Assembly: GCA_964472715.1 (NCBI GenBank)
Contig: CAYYMT010000002.1
Location: 2,602-66,601, forward strand
DNA: 64,000 nt
DNA from: an uncultured bacterium
Lineage (GTDB): Bacteria > Fidelibacterota > UBA2242 > JAFGTP01
Reading direction: 5' to 3'
Below, in pieces: positions 2,555-57,589 of the stretch. Under the pieces are notes generated by a model, which was given only the letters and a program-made list of their open reading frames with translations, did not search any database and was not told the DNA's origin. The translations under genes and the position numbers were made by a program. How positions within the stretch are numbered: position 1 is the stretch's first letter; each line of letters starts with the position of its first letter.

Positions 2555-4051
2555 TTATGTCTTCATTTGCGGGAACAGCAGTACATCACGAATTGTTTTC
2601 TGGTTTGTAAATAACATGGTCAGGCGATCAATTCCAATACCCACACCACCGGTTGGCGGCATGCCGTATTCCATGGCCTGAATAAAATCCTTATCATAAG
2701 TTTGCGCCTCTTCGTCACCTTCCAGCCCCAGTCGTTCCTGGTTCCGCAGGCGCTCTTCCTGATCTATCGGGTCATTCAGTTCGCTAAAGGCATTGGAAAA
2801 TTCCTTGGCACCGATAAACAGTTCAAATCGTTCCACAATTCGGTCGGAACCGTCCCGTTTTAATTTTGCTAACGGCGAAATAGCTTTTGGAAAATCGATC
2901 ACAAAGGTCGGCTGAATCAATTTCGGTTCCACAAATTGATCAAAAAGATATTCTATATAATTACCATAGTGATCTTTGTCACCGGTCTTAATGCCTTTGG
3001 ATTCACAGACCTTTTTCATTTCCGCCTCATCGGCTTCACTCAGATCAATGCCAACATATTCTTCCAGCAGATCAAACATGGTTTTACGGGCAAAGGTCTT
3101 TTTAAAATCAATGGTTTCGCCTTCGTAAGTGAACTCATATTCACCCAGTTGGTCGCAAATATGCTTGAACATTTTTTCAACGAAATCCATCATATAGTTG
3201 TAGTCCACAAAGGTCTCATAAAATTCCAGCAATGTAAATTCCGGATTATGGTTTCTGTCAATACCTTCATTGCGAAAGTTCTTCGACATTTCAAACACCT
3301 TGTCAAAACCGCCGATAATACATCTTTTCAAATAGAGTTCATCGGAAACTCTCAGAAAAAACTCCCTGTTCAGTGCATTATAATGGGTTCTGAAGGGCCG
3401 GGCCGAAGCGCCGCCGTAAAGGGTTTGCAGGATCGGTGTTTCCACTTCCAGATAGCCATTGTCGATCAGAAAATTTCGCACCCAGGTCATGATCTTGCTT
3501 CGGGTTTCAAAAACCTTGCGGGAATCGGGATTCACGATCAGATCGAGATAACGCTGACGGTAGCGCTGTTCTTTATCGGAAAAAGCATCATAAACCTTAC
3601 CCTCTTTTTCTTTAACTACAGGGAGCGGACGGATACTTTTTGACAGAATTGTCAATTCCTCAACAAAAATGGTGATCTGACCGGTGCGGGTTTCAGTGAC
3701 AGTACCGGCCACGCCAATAATATCTCCCAGATCCAAAAGTTTGAAAACCTGGTATTGCTCTTCACCCAGTTTTTTTTGCTGGAAAAAGACCTGGATTTTT
3801 CCCTGTGAATCCTGAAGGTCACAAAAATTGGCCTTGCCCATCTGCCTGATAGCAGTCAGACGTCCGGCCACACGCACAACCGTCTTATCCTTTATTTCTT
3901 CGTAATTATCAAGGATCTGCCGTGTAAAATGAGTTCTGTTATATTCATAGGGAAAAGGATTGATCCCCATTTCTCTGAGTTTTTCAATTTTATCTTTTCT
4001 GACATTAATTATTTCGGTTAAAGATTTACCCATCGATTCGGTATTACTCAA
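2555..4051 (-). CDS. lysS: Lysine--tRNA ligase (class II)
   Basis: 498 aa with an N-terminal OB anticodon-binding region and class II motifs, including C-terminal GVGIGIDRLTMLFTNQKTIRDVLLFPQMK. It lies directly downstream of prfB, the classic prfB-lysS arrangement. Confidence 0.95.
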   Translation of the reverse strand: MSNTESMGKSLTEIINVRKDKIEKLREMGINPFPYEYNRTHFTRQILDNYEEIKDKTVVRVAGRLTAIRQMGKANFCDLQDSQGKIQVFFQQKKLGEEQYQVFKLLDLGDIIGVAGTVTETRTGQITIFVEELTILSKSIRPLPVVKEKEGKVYDAFSDKEQRYRQRYLDLIVNPDSRKVFETRSKIMTWVRNFLIDNGYLEVETPILQTLYGGASARPFRTHYNALNREFFLRVSDELYLKRCIIGGFDKVFEMSKNFRNEGIDRNHNPEFTLLEFYETFVDYNYMMDFVEKMFKHICDQLGEYEFTYEGETIDFKKTFARKTMFDLLEEYVGIDLSEADEAEMKKVCESKGIKTGDKDHYGNYIEYLFDQFVEPKLIQPTFVIDFPKAISPLAKLKRDGSDRIVERFELFIGAKEFSNAFSELNDPIDQEERLRNQERLGLEGDEEAQTYDKDFIQAMEYGMPPTGGVGIGIDRLTMLFTNQKTIRDVLLFPQMKT

Positions 4052-28247: not shown

Positions 28248-29402
28248 ATGGGAGTTATCCATTTCCTGCTGGAATCCCAGTTCTGGTTTCCCATCTGGGT
28301 CATCTTTTTGCTGGAAAAGGACTTCACACTTCAGCAAATCGTATTTGCCGACATGATCTTTCGCGGTTCGATTGTAGTTATGGAATTTCCACTGGGTGTA
28401 TTGGGTGATAAAATCGGCCGTAAATCCACTTATTTTTTCGGCGCTGTGCTCGGGGTGATCACCTATCTGCTGCTCTTGATTACCAATAATTTTCTCACCC
28501 TGGCGCTTTGCTGGATCATGTGGGCCTTTTTTCTCAGTATGCTGTCCGGGACAAATACCGCTTACCGGTATGAATTACTGGCCACCAGGGAGCAGGCTAA
28601 GAGTAATGTGCGGTTATTCGGACTCTTTAATTCCATTGCCGCCCTATCTCTGGTGATTTCCCACTCTTCCGCCGGTTTTCTCTATGATATCAAACCGGCA
28701 CTGCCGATCATCATTAATTGCTGTTTCGCCGGTTTGGCGGCCTTATTAATTCTGACTCTCCCGGGTATTCCCAGGCCAAAGGTCAGTAATGCACCAAATT
28801 CACTAAGAGAGATCTGGCGCGCTTTCCTGATACTGGCAAAAAAGGAACGGACATTACTGGCAACAATTTTTCTATTGGCTATCTGGACAGCATTTCACTG
28901 GACACCAACCCTGCTTTATCAGCCTTTGCTCAAATCAATTGGTATTGGAACAGAATCCTTTGGGATCATTTTTGCGCTCTTTACCGGCATGGGTATTCTC
29001 AGTGGTTTTATAACCGGAAAGATCGCCGGCAGGATCGGTAATATCAAATTGATCATTCTGGGTTTAATAATGCAGGTTGTCGCCGTCGGTATTACCGCTT
29101 TCAGCAGTACAATTGCGCTGATTATTTTTGGAATTGTATTACTCAGGTTTGCTTTCTTTTTGTGTGAGCCGGTACTGAATATTATTCTGAATAACAATCT
29201 GACCAATGATATTCGCGCCTCAGTGATCTCGCTGGTTAATTTAGTCGCCAGCATCATCATGATCTTTTCACGTCCGCTGGTGGGACTGACAGCTGACCGA
29301 TATACGGTAAAATTAGCTTTTATGGTCTGGTTTGTGGTCGGCTTGGCAGCCCTGGGAATCAGCAGCCTGTTGATTGTAAAGCTAAAAAAAACACCGGCAT
29401 GA
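28248..29402 (+). CDS. MFS transporter
   Basis: 384 aa with 12 predicted TM helices and a major-facilitator-like layout. Confidence 0.75.
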   Translation: MGVIHFLLESQFWFPIWVIFLLEKDFTLQQIVFADMIFRGSIVVMEFPLGVLGDKIGRKSTYFFGAVLGVITYLLLLITNNFLTLALCWIMWAFFLSMLSGTNTAYRYELLATREQAKSNVRLFGLFNSIAALSLVISHSSAGFLYDIKPALPIIINCCFAGLAALLILTLPGIPRPKVSNAPNSLREIWRAFLILAKKERTLLATIFLLAIWTAFHWTPTLLYQPLLKSIGIGTESFGIIFALFTGMGILSGFITGKIAGRIGNIKLIILGLIMQVVAVGITAFSSTIALIIFGIVLLRFAFFLCEPVLNIILNNNLTNDIRASVISLVNLVASIIMIFSRPLVGLTADRYTVKLAFMVWFVVGLAALGISSLLIVKLKKTPA

Positions 29403-29441
29403 TCACACACCGGTGCTTAGATTGAAAATTCATAATCTGTT

Positions 29442-46875: not shown

Positions 46876-47685
46876 ATGACCAAAGAAAAAATTATCAGCG
46901 AAATTAAATCCTGGACGATGATCATATTGATTGCTTTTATAATCAAGTCATCGATTTTTGCCGCTTACTTTGTACCCACCGGATCCATGGAAAATACAAT
47001 CCTCACCGGCGATTTTCTGATTGGAAACAATATGAGTTATAATATCCATACACCTGACCGGATTGGCATTCCTTTTACCAAAATCGGCCTGGATATTCCC
47101 CGCTTACAGATGCGCGGCTTTAAAAAACTTCAGCAAGGTGATATTGTCATCTTCCGCTATCCGAAAGACCACTCCCTCAATTATGTCAAACGGTGTGTAG
47201 CCTTACCGGGCCAATACCTGCAAATCATTAACAAGCAAATAATTGTTGATGATAAAATATTTTCCAATGCCGCTGAAACTAAATTTACGCGGGAAAATAG
47301 CTATGGAAATCACCTGGTGAATCGCGGTATTTTCCCAAAAAACAACGGGAATGAGGACAATTATTCGGAAATCTATGTGCCGCAGAAAGGTGATACCCTG
47401 TATTTTAACGATCATAATTTTGAACTGATCAAAAATGTAGCCTGGTTGTCCGGAGATTCTATTTCGAAAAAGGATGCGCAGCAATATTATGTGACAAAAC
47501 AGCATTACTATTTCATGATGGGTGACAACCGGGACGAAAGTTATGACAGCCGGTTTTGGGGGTTTGTACCCGAATCCCTGATTGTCGGAGAACCACTGAT
47601 TCTGCTGTCTTCCTTTGACCTGGACCAACCGGGCTGGAATATTTTTAACCGCATCCGCTGGCGCAGGATTGGAAAACTTTTTTAA
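46876..47685 (+). CDS. lepB: Signal peptidase I
   Basis: 269 aa with an N-terminal TM anchor, the S26 catalytic Ser box (GSMENTILTGD) and the Lys box / box E (GDNRDESYDSRFWGFVP). Confidence 0.9.
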   Translation: MTKEKIISEIKSWTMIILIAFIIKSSIFAAYFVPTGSMENTILTGDFLIGNNMSYNIHTPDRIGIPFTKIGLDIPRLQMRGFKKLQQGDIVIFRYPKDHSLNYVKRCVALPGQYLQIINKQIIVDDKIFSNAAETKFTRENSYGNHLVNRGIFPKNNGNEDNYSEIYVPQKGDTLYFNDHNFELIKNVAWLSGDSISKKDAQQYYVTKQHYYFMMGDNRDESYDSRFWGFVPESLIVGEPLILLSSFDLDQPGWNIFNRIRWRRIGKLF

Positions 47686-47722
47686 TCTGAATTCCGATCA
47701 TTTCTGAATTTTCTTTCGTTTC

Positions 47723-47797
47723 ATTCGTTCCCAAATCCCCCCATTCACTCGTTCCCAAATCCCCCCATTCACTCGTTCCCAAATTGTATTTGGGAAC
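47723..47797. repeat. Tandem 24-bp repeats (about 3 units) ending in a perfect 23-bp palindrome, copy A
   Basis: The units are cattcGTTCCCAAATCCCCCC, ATTCACTCGTTCCCAAATCCCCCC and ATTCACTCGTTCCCAAAT. These are followed by the palindrome GTTCCCAAATtgtATTTGGGAAC at 47775..47797. Confidence 0.8.
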
Positions 47798-48120
47798 GCA
47801 CCCACCCGAAGTTTCAGAACCATTTTCCAAATATAATGTGAGCACAAGTAGCAACACTTCTCAATAACATTGTCCGGAGTATAGTTCAGGAAGTAGGCTG
47901 AAGCCTACTGGCTGTTTCGATTTAGCTTTTTCTCCACCACAATGAATTGTGGTGTTATTCTGAAATTCTTTCACTCGTAGGGCTGTCCCAAAAGGTACAA
48001 TAATTATTAAAATTCAGGGTTATTTTATATTTCACCGAACAGGACAATAGGAATTGTCCTCTACATTTTTTTAACAAAGAAACTTTTAAGACAGCCGCTT
48101 ATTCTGATATTTCTCCTTGC

Positions 48121-48177
48121 AATTCACTTCGTTCCCGAATCCCCCTATTCACTCGTTCCCAAATTGTATTTGGGAAC
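48121..48177. repeat. Second copy of the repeat/palindrome element, copy B
   Basis: AATTCACTTCGTTCCCGAATCCCCCT, then ATTCACTCGTTCCCAAAT, then the identical palindrome GTTCCCAAATTGTATTTGGGAAC at 48155..48177. It is in the same orientation as copy A, about 380 bp away. Confidence 0.8.
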
Positions 48178-48187
48178 GCATCCATTA

Positions 48188-50008
48188 TTATTTTACCAAT
48201 ACCATTTTTCTGGTGGTCACCAATCCTGCATCAACAAACAACCGATAAAAATATATTCCACTGGAATATTGCGAGCCATTCCATTTTGAGGAATAATTAC
48301 CAGCAATTTGTAATTTATCTACCAGGGTATCAATCTTACGGCCGTTAAGATCAAAAACTGATAACTCAACAGCACCATTTTTCTTTAATGAATATTCGAT
48401 AGTTGTCTCGGGATTAAAAGGATTGGGATAATTCTGTTCCAATTGAAACTTTTCCGGTAATGCCGCCTCATCCCCGATAGTGGTTTCCGCTACCTGGACA
48501 ATTTCCAGGCCATGGAGAAAGGCAAAATCCTGTGTCGCAGAAAAATGAATATCAATGACACAATCATTCACTTCGATATTTTCCACCAGCAAATCATAAG
48601 CGGTGTGAATTCCGCCGGCTTCCTTAAACACATCCAGTCCTTTGACCACATAATCACCTTCAATATTGATATCAAAGACCCGTTGGTCACTGGCAGTAAA
48701 ATAATTCTCAGAAAACATCAGTTTCACAGTGTAAATGCCTTTTGGAACCCGTACCTTATACATTACAAAATCCCGTATTTCGGTACGATAAACAGCGTCC
48801 AATGTAGTATTAGCGATAGGTTGTGTAGTTGAGCCTTCAGCACCGGGCATATAGCCGTAATTCTTTTCGAAATCCCACTCCTGGCCTGCCAGAAAATCTC
48901 CGGTAGCATCACCACCGACATTGATCTTCAGCGGATAAACATACTGCGGTGGATTCACAATATTCAAAAATTTTGGCGCGGAAACATTGGGTGTGGCCGT
49001 GCTGTCCTCAATATTCGTTACCATAATATCATGGGCCACAGACATATCATAATCCTTTACCGAAAGAATGACATCCCGTTGATTCTCCTGTAATTCAATG
49101 GCTGTGATTTCACCACCATTGCGCAAAATATAATTAGCAGAATTTTCCGCGCTGGCTTTCAAAACCGGCTCGGAGAACTCAATCTGAATTTGATGTCCGT
49201 CATACCAGGCGCCCTGGGGAATGGGTGGATTTTTGTCCGTGTAACCGGTATTGGTTCCATCTGTCAGGCAAAGTACCAGGTTACCGTCCCGGAAAACTGC
49301 ATTGTCTTTTATGAAATCACAGTTATTTCCAACAAAGGTATGGGTCGCTTTTCCCCAGCGGTTTTGGTCCCAGCTGTCAAAGTCATCTTTCCACTGAAGC
49401 GTAAAATTATTGTCCGTTCCCACGTCCCCGCTACCCGGTGTGTGGGTGGCGTAACTGACGTAATCATAATAAGCGAATTTCGGTAATGTAGCCGGATCAA
49501 GGGTACCCACCCAGTTTTGATAGGCCGGGGGCCAGATATTCATCATGATCTTTTGGCCCCGGTCCAGGGCTTCGATATGCGCGCCGGTCTGACGGTGCAT
49601 TTCCACCCCGTCAATAAACCAGGCCACATATTCCGGCGTCCATTCAAAAGCATAAACATGGAAGTCATCCGCCGGATCAAAATCCACCTGTTGATGATAG
49701 ACATGGTTCTGCTGCCCCGGTGTAATGGGATTGAACTGGACATCATTGTCATAGCGGCCCAGGATTTCTATATCAATTTCATTCCAGGCGGCGGTGCCTT
49801 CCCCTCCCAATTCATGGTAAGTAAAAAAAGTCGATGTATGCCCGGGGCCGATGGAAGATCTGTAGCGCACTTCAAAGCGGCCATAGGTAAAGGTGTCATG
49901 GGTACGGTATTCCGCACCTTTGTAAGTTTTACCGAACGCAGTCCAGCAAAGTACTATCAAAGCCAATATTAGTTTCATGATTTTTTGCATATTACATTTC
50001 CTGTTCAT
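48188..50008 (-). CDS. GH16-family beta-glucanase (laminarinase/licheninase-like) with a T9SS C-terminal sorting domain
   Basis: A signal peptide and the GH16 catalytic motif EIDIE in a beta-jelly-roll region, a middle beta-rich region, and a C-terminal roughly 80-aa Por/T9SS domain (NYPNPFNPETTIEYSL...GIYFYRL). The likely true start is ATG at 49990 (MQKIMKL), which has an AGGAAA RBS. Confidence 0.8.
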   Translation of the reverse strand: MNRKCNMQKIMKLILALIVLCWTAFGKTYKGAEYRTHDTFTYGRFEVRYRSSIGPGHTSTFFTYHELGGEGTAAWNEIDIEILGRYDNDVQFNPITPGQQNHVYHQQVDFDPADDFHVYAFEWTPEYVAWFIDGVEMHRQTGAHIEALDRGQKIMMNIWPPAYQNWVGTLDPATLPKFAYYDYVSYATHTPGSGDVGTDNNFTLQWKDDFDSWDQNRWGKATHTFVGNNCDFIKDNAVFRDGNLVLCLTDGTNTGYTDKNPPIPQGAWYDGHQIQIEFSEPVLKASAENSANYILRNGGEITAIELQENQRDVILSVKDYDMSVAHDIMVTNIEDSTATPNVSAPKFLNIVNPPQYVYPLKINVGGDATGDFLAGQEWDFEKNYGYMPGAEGSTTQPIANTTLDAVYRTEIRDFVMYKVRVPKGIYTVKLMFSENYFTASDQRVFDINIEGDYVVKGLDVFKEAGGIHTAYDLLVENIEVNDCVIDIHFSATQDFAFLHGLEIVQVAETTIGDEAALPEKFQLEQNYPNPFNPETTIEYSLKKNGAVELSVFDLNGRKIDTLVDKLQIAGNYSSKWNGSQYSSGIYFYRLFVDAGLVTTRKMVLVK

Positions 50009-50028
50009 TTATAAAAAAATGTTTCTCT

Positions 50029-50073
50029 CCCGAAGATTTAACTCCGGAAGAGAAACAAAAAGAAGGAGACATT
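50029..50073 (-). terminator. Rho-independent terminator after the outer-membrane barrel gene
   Basis: On the minus strand, a GTTTCTCTTCCGG...CGGGAGAGAAAC stem is followed by ATTTTTTTAT. Confidence 0.6.
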
Positions 50074-57546: not shown

Positions 57547-57589
57547 TTAAAAAAGTTGAGAGAGTCATTTTTGTATAACTCTCTCAACT
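57547..57589 (-). terminator. Hairpin terminator or attenuator between a T9SS cargo gene and the TonB receptor gene
   Basis: On the minus strand, a perfect 10-bp GTTGAGAGAG...CTCTCTCAAC stem is followed by TTTTTTAATT. Confidence 0.55.

Follow-up and report, generated by a model that had tools for sequence, protein, structure and literature searches.

Two direct copies of a probable REP-type hairpin module, one of a multi-phylum repeat family, between convergent genes of an uncultured Fidelibacterota bacterium

Repetitive extragenic palindromic (REP) repeats are usually described as lineage-specific and as tied to a resident RAYT transposase. The locus considered here, a pair of palindromes with associated tandem repeats between lepB and a GH16 glycoside hydrolase gene, is part of a 64,000-nt stretch of DNA from an uncultured Fidelibacterota bacterium (assembly GCA_964472715.1, contig CAYYMT010000002.1, positions 2,602 to 66,601, forward strand); this whole stretch is called 'the window' below and supplies the coordinates. 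The reading preferred here, to which a probability of about 0.6 is given, is that the locus comprises two direct copies of a REP-type module, a repeat that forms hairpins and is dispersed among genomes. Comparison across genomes identifies the module as a family present in many phyla, whose copies are intergenic, mainly downstream of genes and often arranged as inverted doublets, with no linked transposase gene.

The CGTC-tagged REPs carry an unpaired 5′ tag CGTC (variants TGTC and CCTC), an 8–9-bp stem that starts with an A-T and a T-A pair, a loop of 4–5 nt and a 3-nt tail, CCA. They occur mostly as head-to-head dimers in several phyla, including Chlorobi and Bacteroidetes, have no linked transposase gene and belong to a superfamily that includes the dRS3 repeat of Neisseria (Di Nocera et al. 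2013, PMC3733652). In the Neisseria intergenic mosaic elements (NIMEs; dRS3-RS-dRS3), palindromes bracket a non-coding, AT-richer segment downstream of genes, and the arrays are strain-variable and tied to recombination and rearrangement (PMC1797815). REPs are known as mRNA 3′ stabilisers, terminators, protein-binding sites and targets of insertion sequences (ISs) (PMC3333891); IS1397 and others insert in the loops of enterobacterial REPs (PMC1525189). The TnpA-REP protein needs a mismatch in the stem, and a perfect palindrome abolished binding and cleavage (PMC3333891).

That the palindromes might belong to a REP-like genomic repeat family was one suggestion of an earlier, sequence-only reading of the window, and it is supported by other genomes though not by the window itself. 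A search of 185,579 species genomes (one per species, 596 Gb) with the pattern GTTCCCAAAT-N2-6-ATTTGGGAAC matched at least 116 loci, against some 3–4 expected by chance for this composition by an estimate made here; no further copy of the palindrome, of the 24-nt unit or of the interior hairpins was found in the window. Fetched loci (labelled L001 and so on) extend up to 8 kb each and total 682 kb. Twenty-one loci from Planococcaceae were set aside from the family (see below), and the remaining 95 share the flanks of the palindrome and a second hairpin, H2. All family counts are lower bounds from a biased sample of genomes. Carriers among the matches listed are Hydrogenedentota, Candidatus Parabeggiatoa and other Thiotrichaceae, Ignavibacteriota, Chlorobiaceae, Cloacimonadota, Brocadiaceae (Kuenenia), Gemmatimonadota, Verrucomicrobiota, Nitrospirales, Neomarinimicrobiota, Calditrichota, Anaerolineales, Deferribacteres and Bacteroidota; the module is found in at least 10 phyla. 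Viral contigs searched with the palindrome and two interior hairpins gave 0 matches, a plasmid collection searched with the window module and a Hydrogenedentota doublet gave none, a metagenome scan with the window-type tag (CACTC-palindrome-GCA) returned one unrelated high-G+C contig only, and a literature search on the two 10-mers found primer matches only.

The closest versions of the window module are two loci (L053 and L088) of one unclassified related metagenome-assembled genome (MAG), which have the same TTCACTC tag and GCAnCCnCCCGAAGCTTCG tail; at the H2 position they read CCGAAGCTTCGG and CGAAGCTTCG, where window copy 1 has the decayed CCGAAGTTTCAG. These loci bear on the alternative that the locus is a purely local duplication in an intergenic region. 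The lack of another copy in the 64 kb and the absence of the region from the nearest relative are what such a duplication would leave, but more than 100 loci elsewhere share the flanks and the second hairpin, two of them down to tag and tail. As a full explanation, local duplication is refuted, and its probability is put close to nil.

What is conserved in the module is best seen in its 143 distinct copies. The tag is NCTC in 90 of them, CCTC being the commonest form (32) and CGTC itself never occurring, and an unpaired CT is conserved at the 5′ foot. The stem has 10 bp plus an outer C-G or T-A pair, with a G-C first pair in 135 copies, and pairing is also possible between the last C of the tag and the G that follows the stem. 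Loop length is 3 nt in 117 copies and 4 nt in 23, and the first loop base is T in 140 (TNN). The tail is GCA (54 copies), ACA (15), GTA (14) or CCA (3), and 8–12 nt beyond it lies H2, with the consensus GAARY-TNN-RYTTC. The inner pairs of H2 alternate between AU (17) and GC (14) and between CG (16) and UA (15); its covariation score is 0.183, compared with 0.094 in shuffles; 0 of 500 shuffles attain 0.183, and all slid controls score below it. A covariance model built from 33 copies (R1) gave 287 matches in the fetched loci, overlapping and opposite-strand matches at the same palindromes included. Among the best 150 of these matches, the 42 with a non-exact palindrome still pair (431 Watson–Crick cells, 12 GU, 6 AC and 12 other), and variant stems such as CCAAGT/ACTTGG, CCAAAC/GTTTGG, CCTAAAT/ATTTAGG and GTTACC/GGTAAC are found. 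Because pairing is kept through double substitutions, it is the ability to form both hairpins that is conserved and not the sequence alone, and both have been maintained by compensatory changes.

The module resembles the CGTC-tagged REPs in its dimers with the tags outside, in lacking a linked transposase gene and in its multi-phylum range; it also has a 5′ tag, whose form CCTC is one of the listed variants, and a 3-nt tail, though one with another first base. However, the stem of the module is longer (10–11 bp as against 8–9), its loop is shorter (3 nt as against 4–5), its first pair is G-C and not A-T (an A-T start is seen in L071 only), its tail is GCA and not CCA, its inner stem is AAAT/ATTT, and a second covarying hairpin belongs to it. 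The window pair is also head-to-tail, unlike the predominant head-to-head pairs of that family. The stem start, GTTCCC (ATTCCC in L071), comes near the ATTCCC...GGGAAT of dRS3, and the window pair, bracketing 324 nt at a synteny break, parallels one dRS3-RS-dRS3 unit. The parallel with NIMEs is limited in that RS segments are 19–214 bp long and repeated whereas the window interior is unique, only a single genus is known to have NIMEs, neither a recombinase nor a phage that targets dRS3 was seen here, and the module reads GTTCCC-N11-GGGAAC where dRS3 reads ATTCCC-N8-GGGAAT. Classic CGTC-1/dRS3-type repeats (CGTC-ATTCCCGCGCAGGCGGGAAT-CCA), a type known from Neisseria and alpha-proteobacteria, adjoin the module in two loci, L114 (4196–4283) and L032 (7778–7805), which come from Hydrogenedentota and an unclassified MAG.

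With the GTAG REPs, BIMEs and REPINs (PMC3333891, PMC2817692, PMC3116915) the module shares intergenic hairpins, frequent inverted doublets and compensatory stems, and its loop is an insertion target for a miniature inverted-repeat transposable element (MITE), as REP loops are for ISs and MITEs (PMC1525189). It differs in that no GTAG occurs in the module alignments, the stems are perfect in the window and in most copies where TnpA-REP requires a mismatch, no RAYT gene is seen in the 95 loci or the window, and the module is near-identical across phyla where these REPs are lineage-specific. Since the tag and the stem mismatch of RAYT-type REPs are lacking and the differences from the CGTC repeats are several, the best reading is that the module is a new REP-like family or variant and not a member of a described family, closest in design to the CGTC-tagged REPs and the dRS3/NIME units. 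Readings as a diversity-generating retroelement, an attC site, a parS site, a LexA box or a CRISPR were considered and dropped; the sequence departs from the respective consensuses, and partner genes are lacking.

Across the family, copies often form inverted doublets, 80–145 bp long with the tags outside. Crude gene calls place 19 copies between convergent, 27 between tandem and 6 between divergent genes, and copies often lie 10–40 nt past a stop codon; a count made here shows no orientation bias relative to genes. No linked gene was found. When all open reading frames (ORFs) in the fetched loci were clustered, no recurrent protein cluster was found near the palindrome; the 152 Pfam families matched by 148 neighbouring ORFs each occur in two ORFs at most, and the 25 families listed do not include the Y1 transposase. 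Neither the 95 loci nor the window yielded a RAYT gene, and the ORF list of the window holds no recombinase, tnpA or tnpB gene.

These observations count against a reading in which the locus is a non-autonomous IS200/IS605-type element (a palindrome-associated transposable element, PATE) or a RAYT-type REP, the direct hairpins being the left and right ends recognised on one DNA strand by a Y1 HUH transposase acting in trans and the 324-nt interior the cargo. As in IS200/IS605 elements and PATEs, two similar subterminal hairpins stand in direct orientation around a non-coding interior, and the 31 nt before and the 7 nt after each hairpin are identical; variants preserve the pairing of the hairpin and not its sequence; and the unpaired CT at the 5′ foot recalls the E. 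coli TnpA-REP protein, which cuts between C and T (PMC3333891). However, no Y1 transposase was seen among the genes near the 95 loci, TnpA and TnpB genes are missing from the window, and there is no sign of a target tetranucleotide. A RAYT needs GTAG and a stem mismatch (PMC3333891), whereas the window has a perfect palindrome and an NCTC tag; most family pairs are inverted, not direct; and the interior was found nowhere else in the searched sets. The PATE/RAYT reading is accordingly regarded as unlikely.

In at least 12 loci the palindrome lies within 100 nt of a contig end, as repeats or structural variants would cause. In three Hydrogenedentota MAGs a MITE of ~400 bp with the terminal inverted repeat TCTTGTCATTACCCACATC sits in the palindrome loop (L096 ~1095–1515; L018 ~3000–3440, minus strand; L039 ~2200–2715), and since its 7-nt duplications differ (GTGCAAC, ACGGAAT), it targets the loop specifically. 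In Candidatus Parabeggiatoa HSG14 (L001, L019, L025, L041, L054, L058 and L105) an inverted doublet palindrome-H2-H2′-palindrome lies inside a ~260-bp MITE with a terminal inverted repeat of its own, TAACCTGAGTTCGAT; L005, L011, L040 and L078 show a second, REPIN-like version with a long hairpin.

Half-site pieces accompany the palindrome elsewhere too. Solo left arms occur upstream of it in 12 of 60 oriented copies and solo right arms downstream in 1 of 60; in L031 (6816–6956) a run of at least eight tandem 17-nt units ('right arm + tag') extends from the palindrome to the contig end, and in L024 (1–200) four complete modules stand head to tail, repeating every 44 nt. The 24-nt units of the window are thus a recurrent polar feature of the family and not a local oddity. 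The earlier reading had also offered paired operators, and one form of this would be an operator or iteron array in which a dimer binds the palindrome and monomers bind half-sites, so as to regulate lepB or GH16 or to act as a partition or replication site. In its favour, the left array repeats half-sites every 24 bp, three of them direct and one inverted, and the right array has two direct and one inverted. But lepB and GH16 converge on the sites and so have them downstream, the genes next to the module in at least 10 phyla are unrelated and include no common or recurrent neighbour, and the second covarying hairpin has no place in an operator model, so that this alternative is very improbable.

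The features of the locus are collected in Table 1.

Table 1. Features of the lepB–GH16 intergenic region and its flanking genes, in window coordinates
Feature	Position	Strand	Remarks
lepB (signal peptidase I)	46876..47685	+	left flank; ORF; stop codon 47683–47685, 33 nt before repeat array
70-aa ORF	47645..47857	-	translated repeats only, no gene; reads GTSEWGDLGTSEWGDLGT
Repeat unit 1	47719..47742	+	TTTCATTCGTTCCCAAATCCCCCC; tag, palindrome left arm and C6 spacer; 2 mismatches to unit 2
Repeat unit 2	47743..47766	+	ATTCACTCGTTCCCAAATCCCCCC
5′ tag, module copy 1	47767..47773	+	ATTCACT, then paired C at 47774; family consensus NCTC
Palindrome, copy 1	47774..47798	+	C-GTTCCCAAAT-TGT-ATTTGGGAAC-G; 11-bp stem, 3-nt loop
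Tail and decayed H2, copy 1	47799..47822	+	starts CACCCA; H2 CCGAAGTTTCAG at 47806–47817
Unique non-coding interior	47823..48122		no ORF >49 aa; no homolog found
Perfect hairpin	47892..47909		AGTAGGCT-GA-AGCCTACT; single occurrence in window
Perfect hairpin	47935..47954		CACCACAA-TGAA-TTGTGGTG; single occurrence in window
Possible decayed unit	47969..47997	+	TTTCACTCGT, 7 nt, TCCCAAAAGGTA; direct-repeat family D2 and reading of the sequence; weak
Terminator-like hairpin	48041..48072	+	AGGACAAT-AGGA-ATTGTCCT (48041–48060), then CTACA and T7
Unit before copy 2	48123..48146	+	TTCACTTCGTTCCCGAATCCCCCT; 2 mismatches
5′ tag, module copy 2	48147..48153	+	ATTCACT, then paired C at 48154
Palindrome, copy 2	48154..48178	+	equal to copy 1 including loop TGT; direct orientation
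Tail, copy 2	48179..48187	+	CATCCA then TTA; GCA tail starts at paired G 48178; no H2
GH16 glycoside hydrolase with Por/type IX secretion system (T9SS) tail	48188..50008	-	right flank, convergent with lepB; PF00722, PF11721, PF18962

The 502-nt gap between lepB and GH16 is the longest intergenic gap in the ORF list of the window. Homologs of LepB, which match Pfam PF10502 and are annotated as signal peptidase I from Candidatus Marinimicrobia, place the window in Candidatus Marinimicrobia/Neomarinimicrobiota, and an exact look-up of the GH16 protein with two alternative starts found no record. The sequence-only description of this gap holds throughout: the 23-nt palindromes are exact copies (47775–47797 and 48155–48177, 380 nt from start to start), 24-nt units precede both (three at copy 1, one with 2 mismatches at copy 2), no plausible ORF lies between them, and the 70-aa ORF is the repeats in translation. 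Shuffled versions of the window gave 0 palindrome matches. With the flanking C and G included, the stems reach 11 bp, and the G closing the stem of copy 1, at 47798, is the first base of the family GCA tail. The full direct repeat is 56 nt long at 95% identity (47749–47804 and 48129–48184), and since the loop TGT is asymmetric, the two copies are direct repeats and not merely palindromic. The three tandem units at 47719–47790 each contain CTCGTTCCCAAAT, the third (from 47767) merging into the palindrome; Tandem Repeats Finder reports 47720–47784 with a period of 24, 2.7 copies and 97% matches. The minus strand of 47719–47798 has G-tracts of 6, 3, 6, 3 and 3 in ~75 nt (C-tracts on the plus strand), which makes a G-quadruplex or i-motif conceivable.

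The predicted DNA folds have energies of −11.6 kcal/mol for copy 1 and −13.2 kcal/mol for copy 2 (z = −5.4). The covariance model matched copy 1 at 47770–47822 (48 bits, E = 3e-10) and copy 2 at 48150–48208 (43 bits), the H2 positions of copy 2 being unpaired in the alignment; the module of copy 2 ends 9 nt from the GH16 stop codon. Copy 1 might have been what is left of an inverted doublet (inverted repeat I2) whose other half has decayed; this was rejected, as the mirror sequence expected after H2 is absent.

Their position right after the stop codons (9 nt for GH16) and their stable predicted hairpins could suggest that the palindromes are intrinsic (Rho-independent) terminators for the two convergent genes. 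However, no T-run follows either palindrome on either strand, and a terminator scan does not list them. Hairpins with long stems (13–16 bp) and T-runs do stand right after other gene ends (50020–50057, 57554–57589 and 29389–29418, all on the minus strand), from which it follows that this genome uses canonical intrinsic terminators; in more distant relatives, lepB itself ends in a canonical hairpin with a T-run (L121). The earlier judgement that the palindromes are not classic terminators is therefore upheld, and the terminator reading is given almost no weight.

The interior, taken as the 324 nt between the 56-nt repeats, has no ORF longer than 49 aa. The perfect hairpins noticed earlier are exact, and seven entries with a stem of at least 7 bp compare with a mean of 0.19 in 2000 first-order Markov resamples; as 0 of the 2000 reached seven, the term 'hairpin-rich' exceeds what chance would give. 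On the plus strand, the hairpin at 48041–48072 is the sole site after lepB that looks like a canonical terminator. A 14-nt inverted repeat (47981–47994 and 48083–48096, 86% complementary) encloses the hairpin at 48041–48060, and its pairing is the main long-range helix in both predicted interior folds.

Such a region might encode a small RNA (~47890–48072, plus strand) that the palindromes merely insulate, a version of the earlier idea that they bound a small structured RNA. A promoter-like site at 47858–47885, the terminator-like hairpin with its T7, three perfect hairpins where ~0.2 are expected and a folding z-score of −2.3 on the plus strand would fit this. However, the promoter match, 9/12, equals the background rate, the z-scores are modest (−2.3 on the plus strand and −1.75), and the region is absent from the closest relative. 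No Rfam match was found at the locus, either for 47500–48400 at E up to 10 or for the window at the gathering score, at which tRNAs alone were matched. Rfam at the gathering score on 15 repeat-rich loci likewise gave no match to the module, and a tRNA/tmRNA scan found nothing at the locus. Nor was an interior homolog found in the fetched loci, in viral contigs (two interior patterns tried) or in the closest relative. A small RNA is considered improbable here.

In the nearest assembly, GCA_964438745.1, lepB (82% aa identity) is followed after 65 bp by sbcC, GH16 (88%) is on a different contig from lepB and is followed by unrelated genes, and neither place has a module. Similarity to the window stops exactly at the lepB and GH16 stop codons; with the relative lacking the modules, this makes the modules and the filler between them lineage-specific and places them on a synteny breakpoint. 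The 65-bp lepB–sbcC spacer of this relative (L119, 1072–1136) contains TTATCCACA, a perfect match to the DnaA-box consensus that is probably due to chance. Two Logan contigs with an identical lepB, from independent assemblies (SRR15425355 and SRR15425352), both stop at window position 47699, 20 nt before the array and ahead of any 31-mer that is repeated within the locus. The shared end suggests that either a structural variant or a dispersed repeat of greater length begins at 47699/47700.

A break of this sort, together with a 56-nt repeat that brackets a unique segment, could also be left by a site-specific recombination cassette. The palindrome would then be the core site of an IS110/Piv-like or a tyrosine recombinase, and the A-B-A layout would come from integration of a small circle with one site, as proposed for the dRS3-RS-dRS3 units of Neisseria. 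The design recalls dRS3 (ATTCCC-N8-GGGAAT), which flanks RS elements and is a filamentous phage integration site (PMC1797815), and the L071 variant has the same ATTCCC...GGGAAT ends. On the other hand, no recombinase gene is present in the window and none recurs near other copies, and the conservation of pairing as far as the 3-nt loop is more in keeping with a single strand that folds than with a duplex core site and its 6–8-bp crossover. The cassette explanation is thought distinctly unlikely.

Several points weigh against the interpretation as two copies of a dispersed REP-type module. The window pair is direct, where pairs elsewhere are mostly inverted. The covariance model, run with filters off, finds only the two known copies in the 64 kb, and multi-copy status in the source genome is inferred from the related MAG (L053 and L088) and from contig breaks. 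No enzyme that would move the module was identified near the copies, and no usable orthologous empty site was found among the fetched loci, so that no member has a filled/empty pair. REPs usually co-evolve with their lineage, and a 23-nt sequence that is nearly the same from phylum to phylum is unusual for them. Some MAG bins may be contaminated; the G+C of the flanks, however, ranges widely from AT-rich to GC-rich, so that the multi-phylum spread is real.

If the locus is of the REP kind, each copy would provide a stable 3′ hairpin for the convergent lepB and GH16 transcripts, and by analogy with other REPs this hairpin would shield the 3′ end of the mRNA or hinder read-through. At the level of DNA, the repeats may act as substrates for recombination and insertion; the breaks in contigs, the MITE in the loop, the half-site scars and the loss of synteny all point this way. 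Such events would account for the synteny break and for the A-B-A layout of direct repeats, and also for the tandem 'tag + left arm' units, which can be read as scars of repeated rearrangement at the hairpin. Spread of the module could be by a trans-acting enzyme or by recombination. A more speculative proposal, regarded as unlikely, is that the two-hairpin module is the recognition structure of a trans-acting enzyme that works on folded single strands and moves or recombines the module between distant bacteria. Segments bracketed by modules (here 47799–48153) would then be captured cassettes, a non-coding counterpart of integron or NIME arrays, and the tandem units abortive strand-transfer products. 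Integron attC sites would share with the module recognition as a folded hairpin (if any occurs), the precedence of pairing over sequence and the bracketing of cassettes. They differ from it in their RYYYAAC...GTTRRRY cores and extrahelical bases, where the module has GTTCCC...GGGAAC, a perfect stem and no integrase.

The Planococcaceae copies (L015, L017, L026, L027, L044, L050 and 15 more) have the same 10-nt arms around a 4-nt centre (e.g. L017 5370–5393), occur once per genome and have covarying A-run/T-run flanks. They lie 15–40 nt upstream of a gene for a Xer-like tyrosine recombinase, which scores 222 bits against XerC/XerD cut-offs of ~330, and ~50 nt further upstream is a LexA (Cheo)-like box, GAACGTATGTTC. 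The site falls at 45–49% of the chromosome in three complete genomes. The Xer-like neighbour and the mid-chromosome position raised the possibility of a Xer/dif-like site, which was rejected, there being no GC-skew switch at the site and its flanks being terminator-like. The site is probably a conserved, orthologous-looking bidirectional terminator and a chance match to the palindrome; since ~3 chance matches are expected in the collection by the estimate made here, these copies were treated as unrelated to the family.

In practical terms, the module breaks assemblies and marks rearrangement points in MAGs, and it yields spurious ORF calls such as the 70-aa ORF of the window. Its wider interest lies in its distribution: candidate phyla, large sulfur bacteria, anammox bacteria and Verrucomicrobia all carry it in nearly the same form, and no linked gene was found. 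The module thus extends the little-studied 'transposase-less' class of REPs to many uncultured lineages, and puts more sharply the question of what spreads such repeats and keeps their sequence constant.

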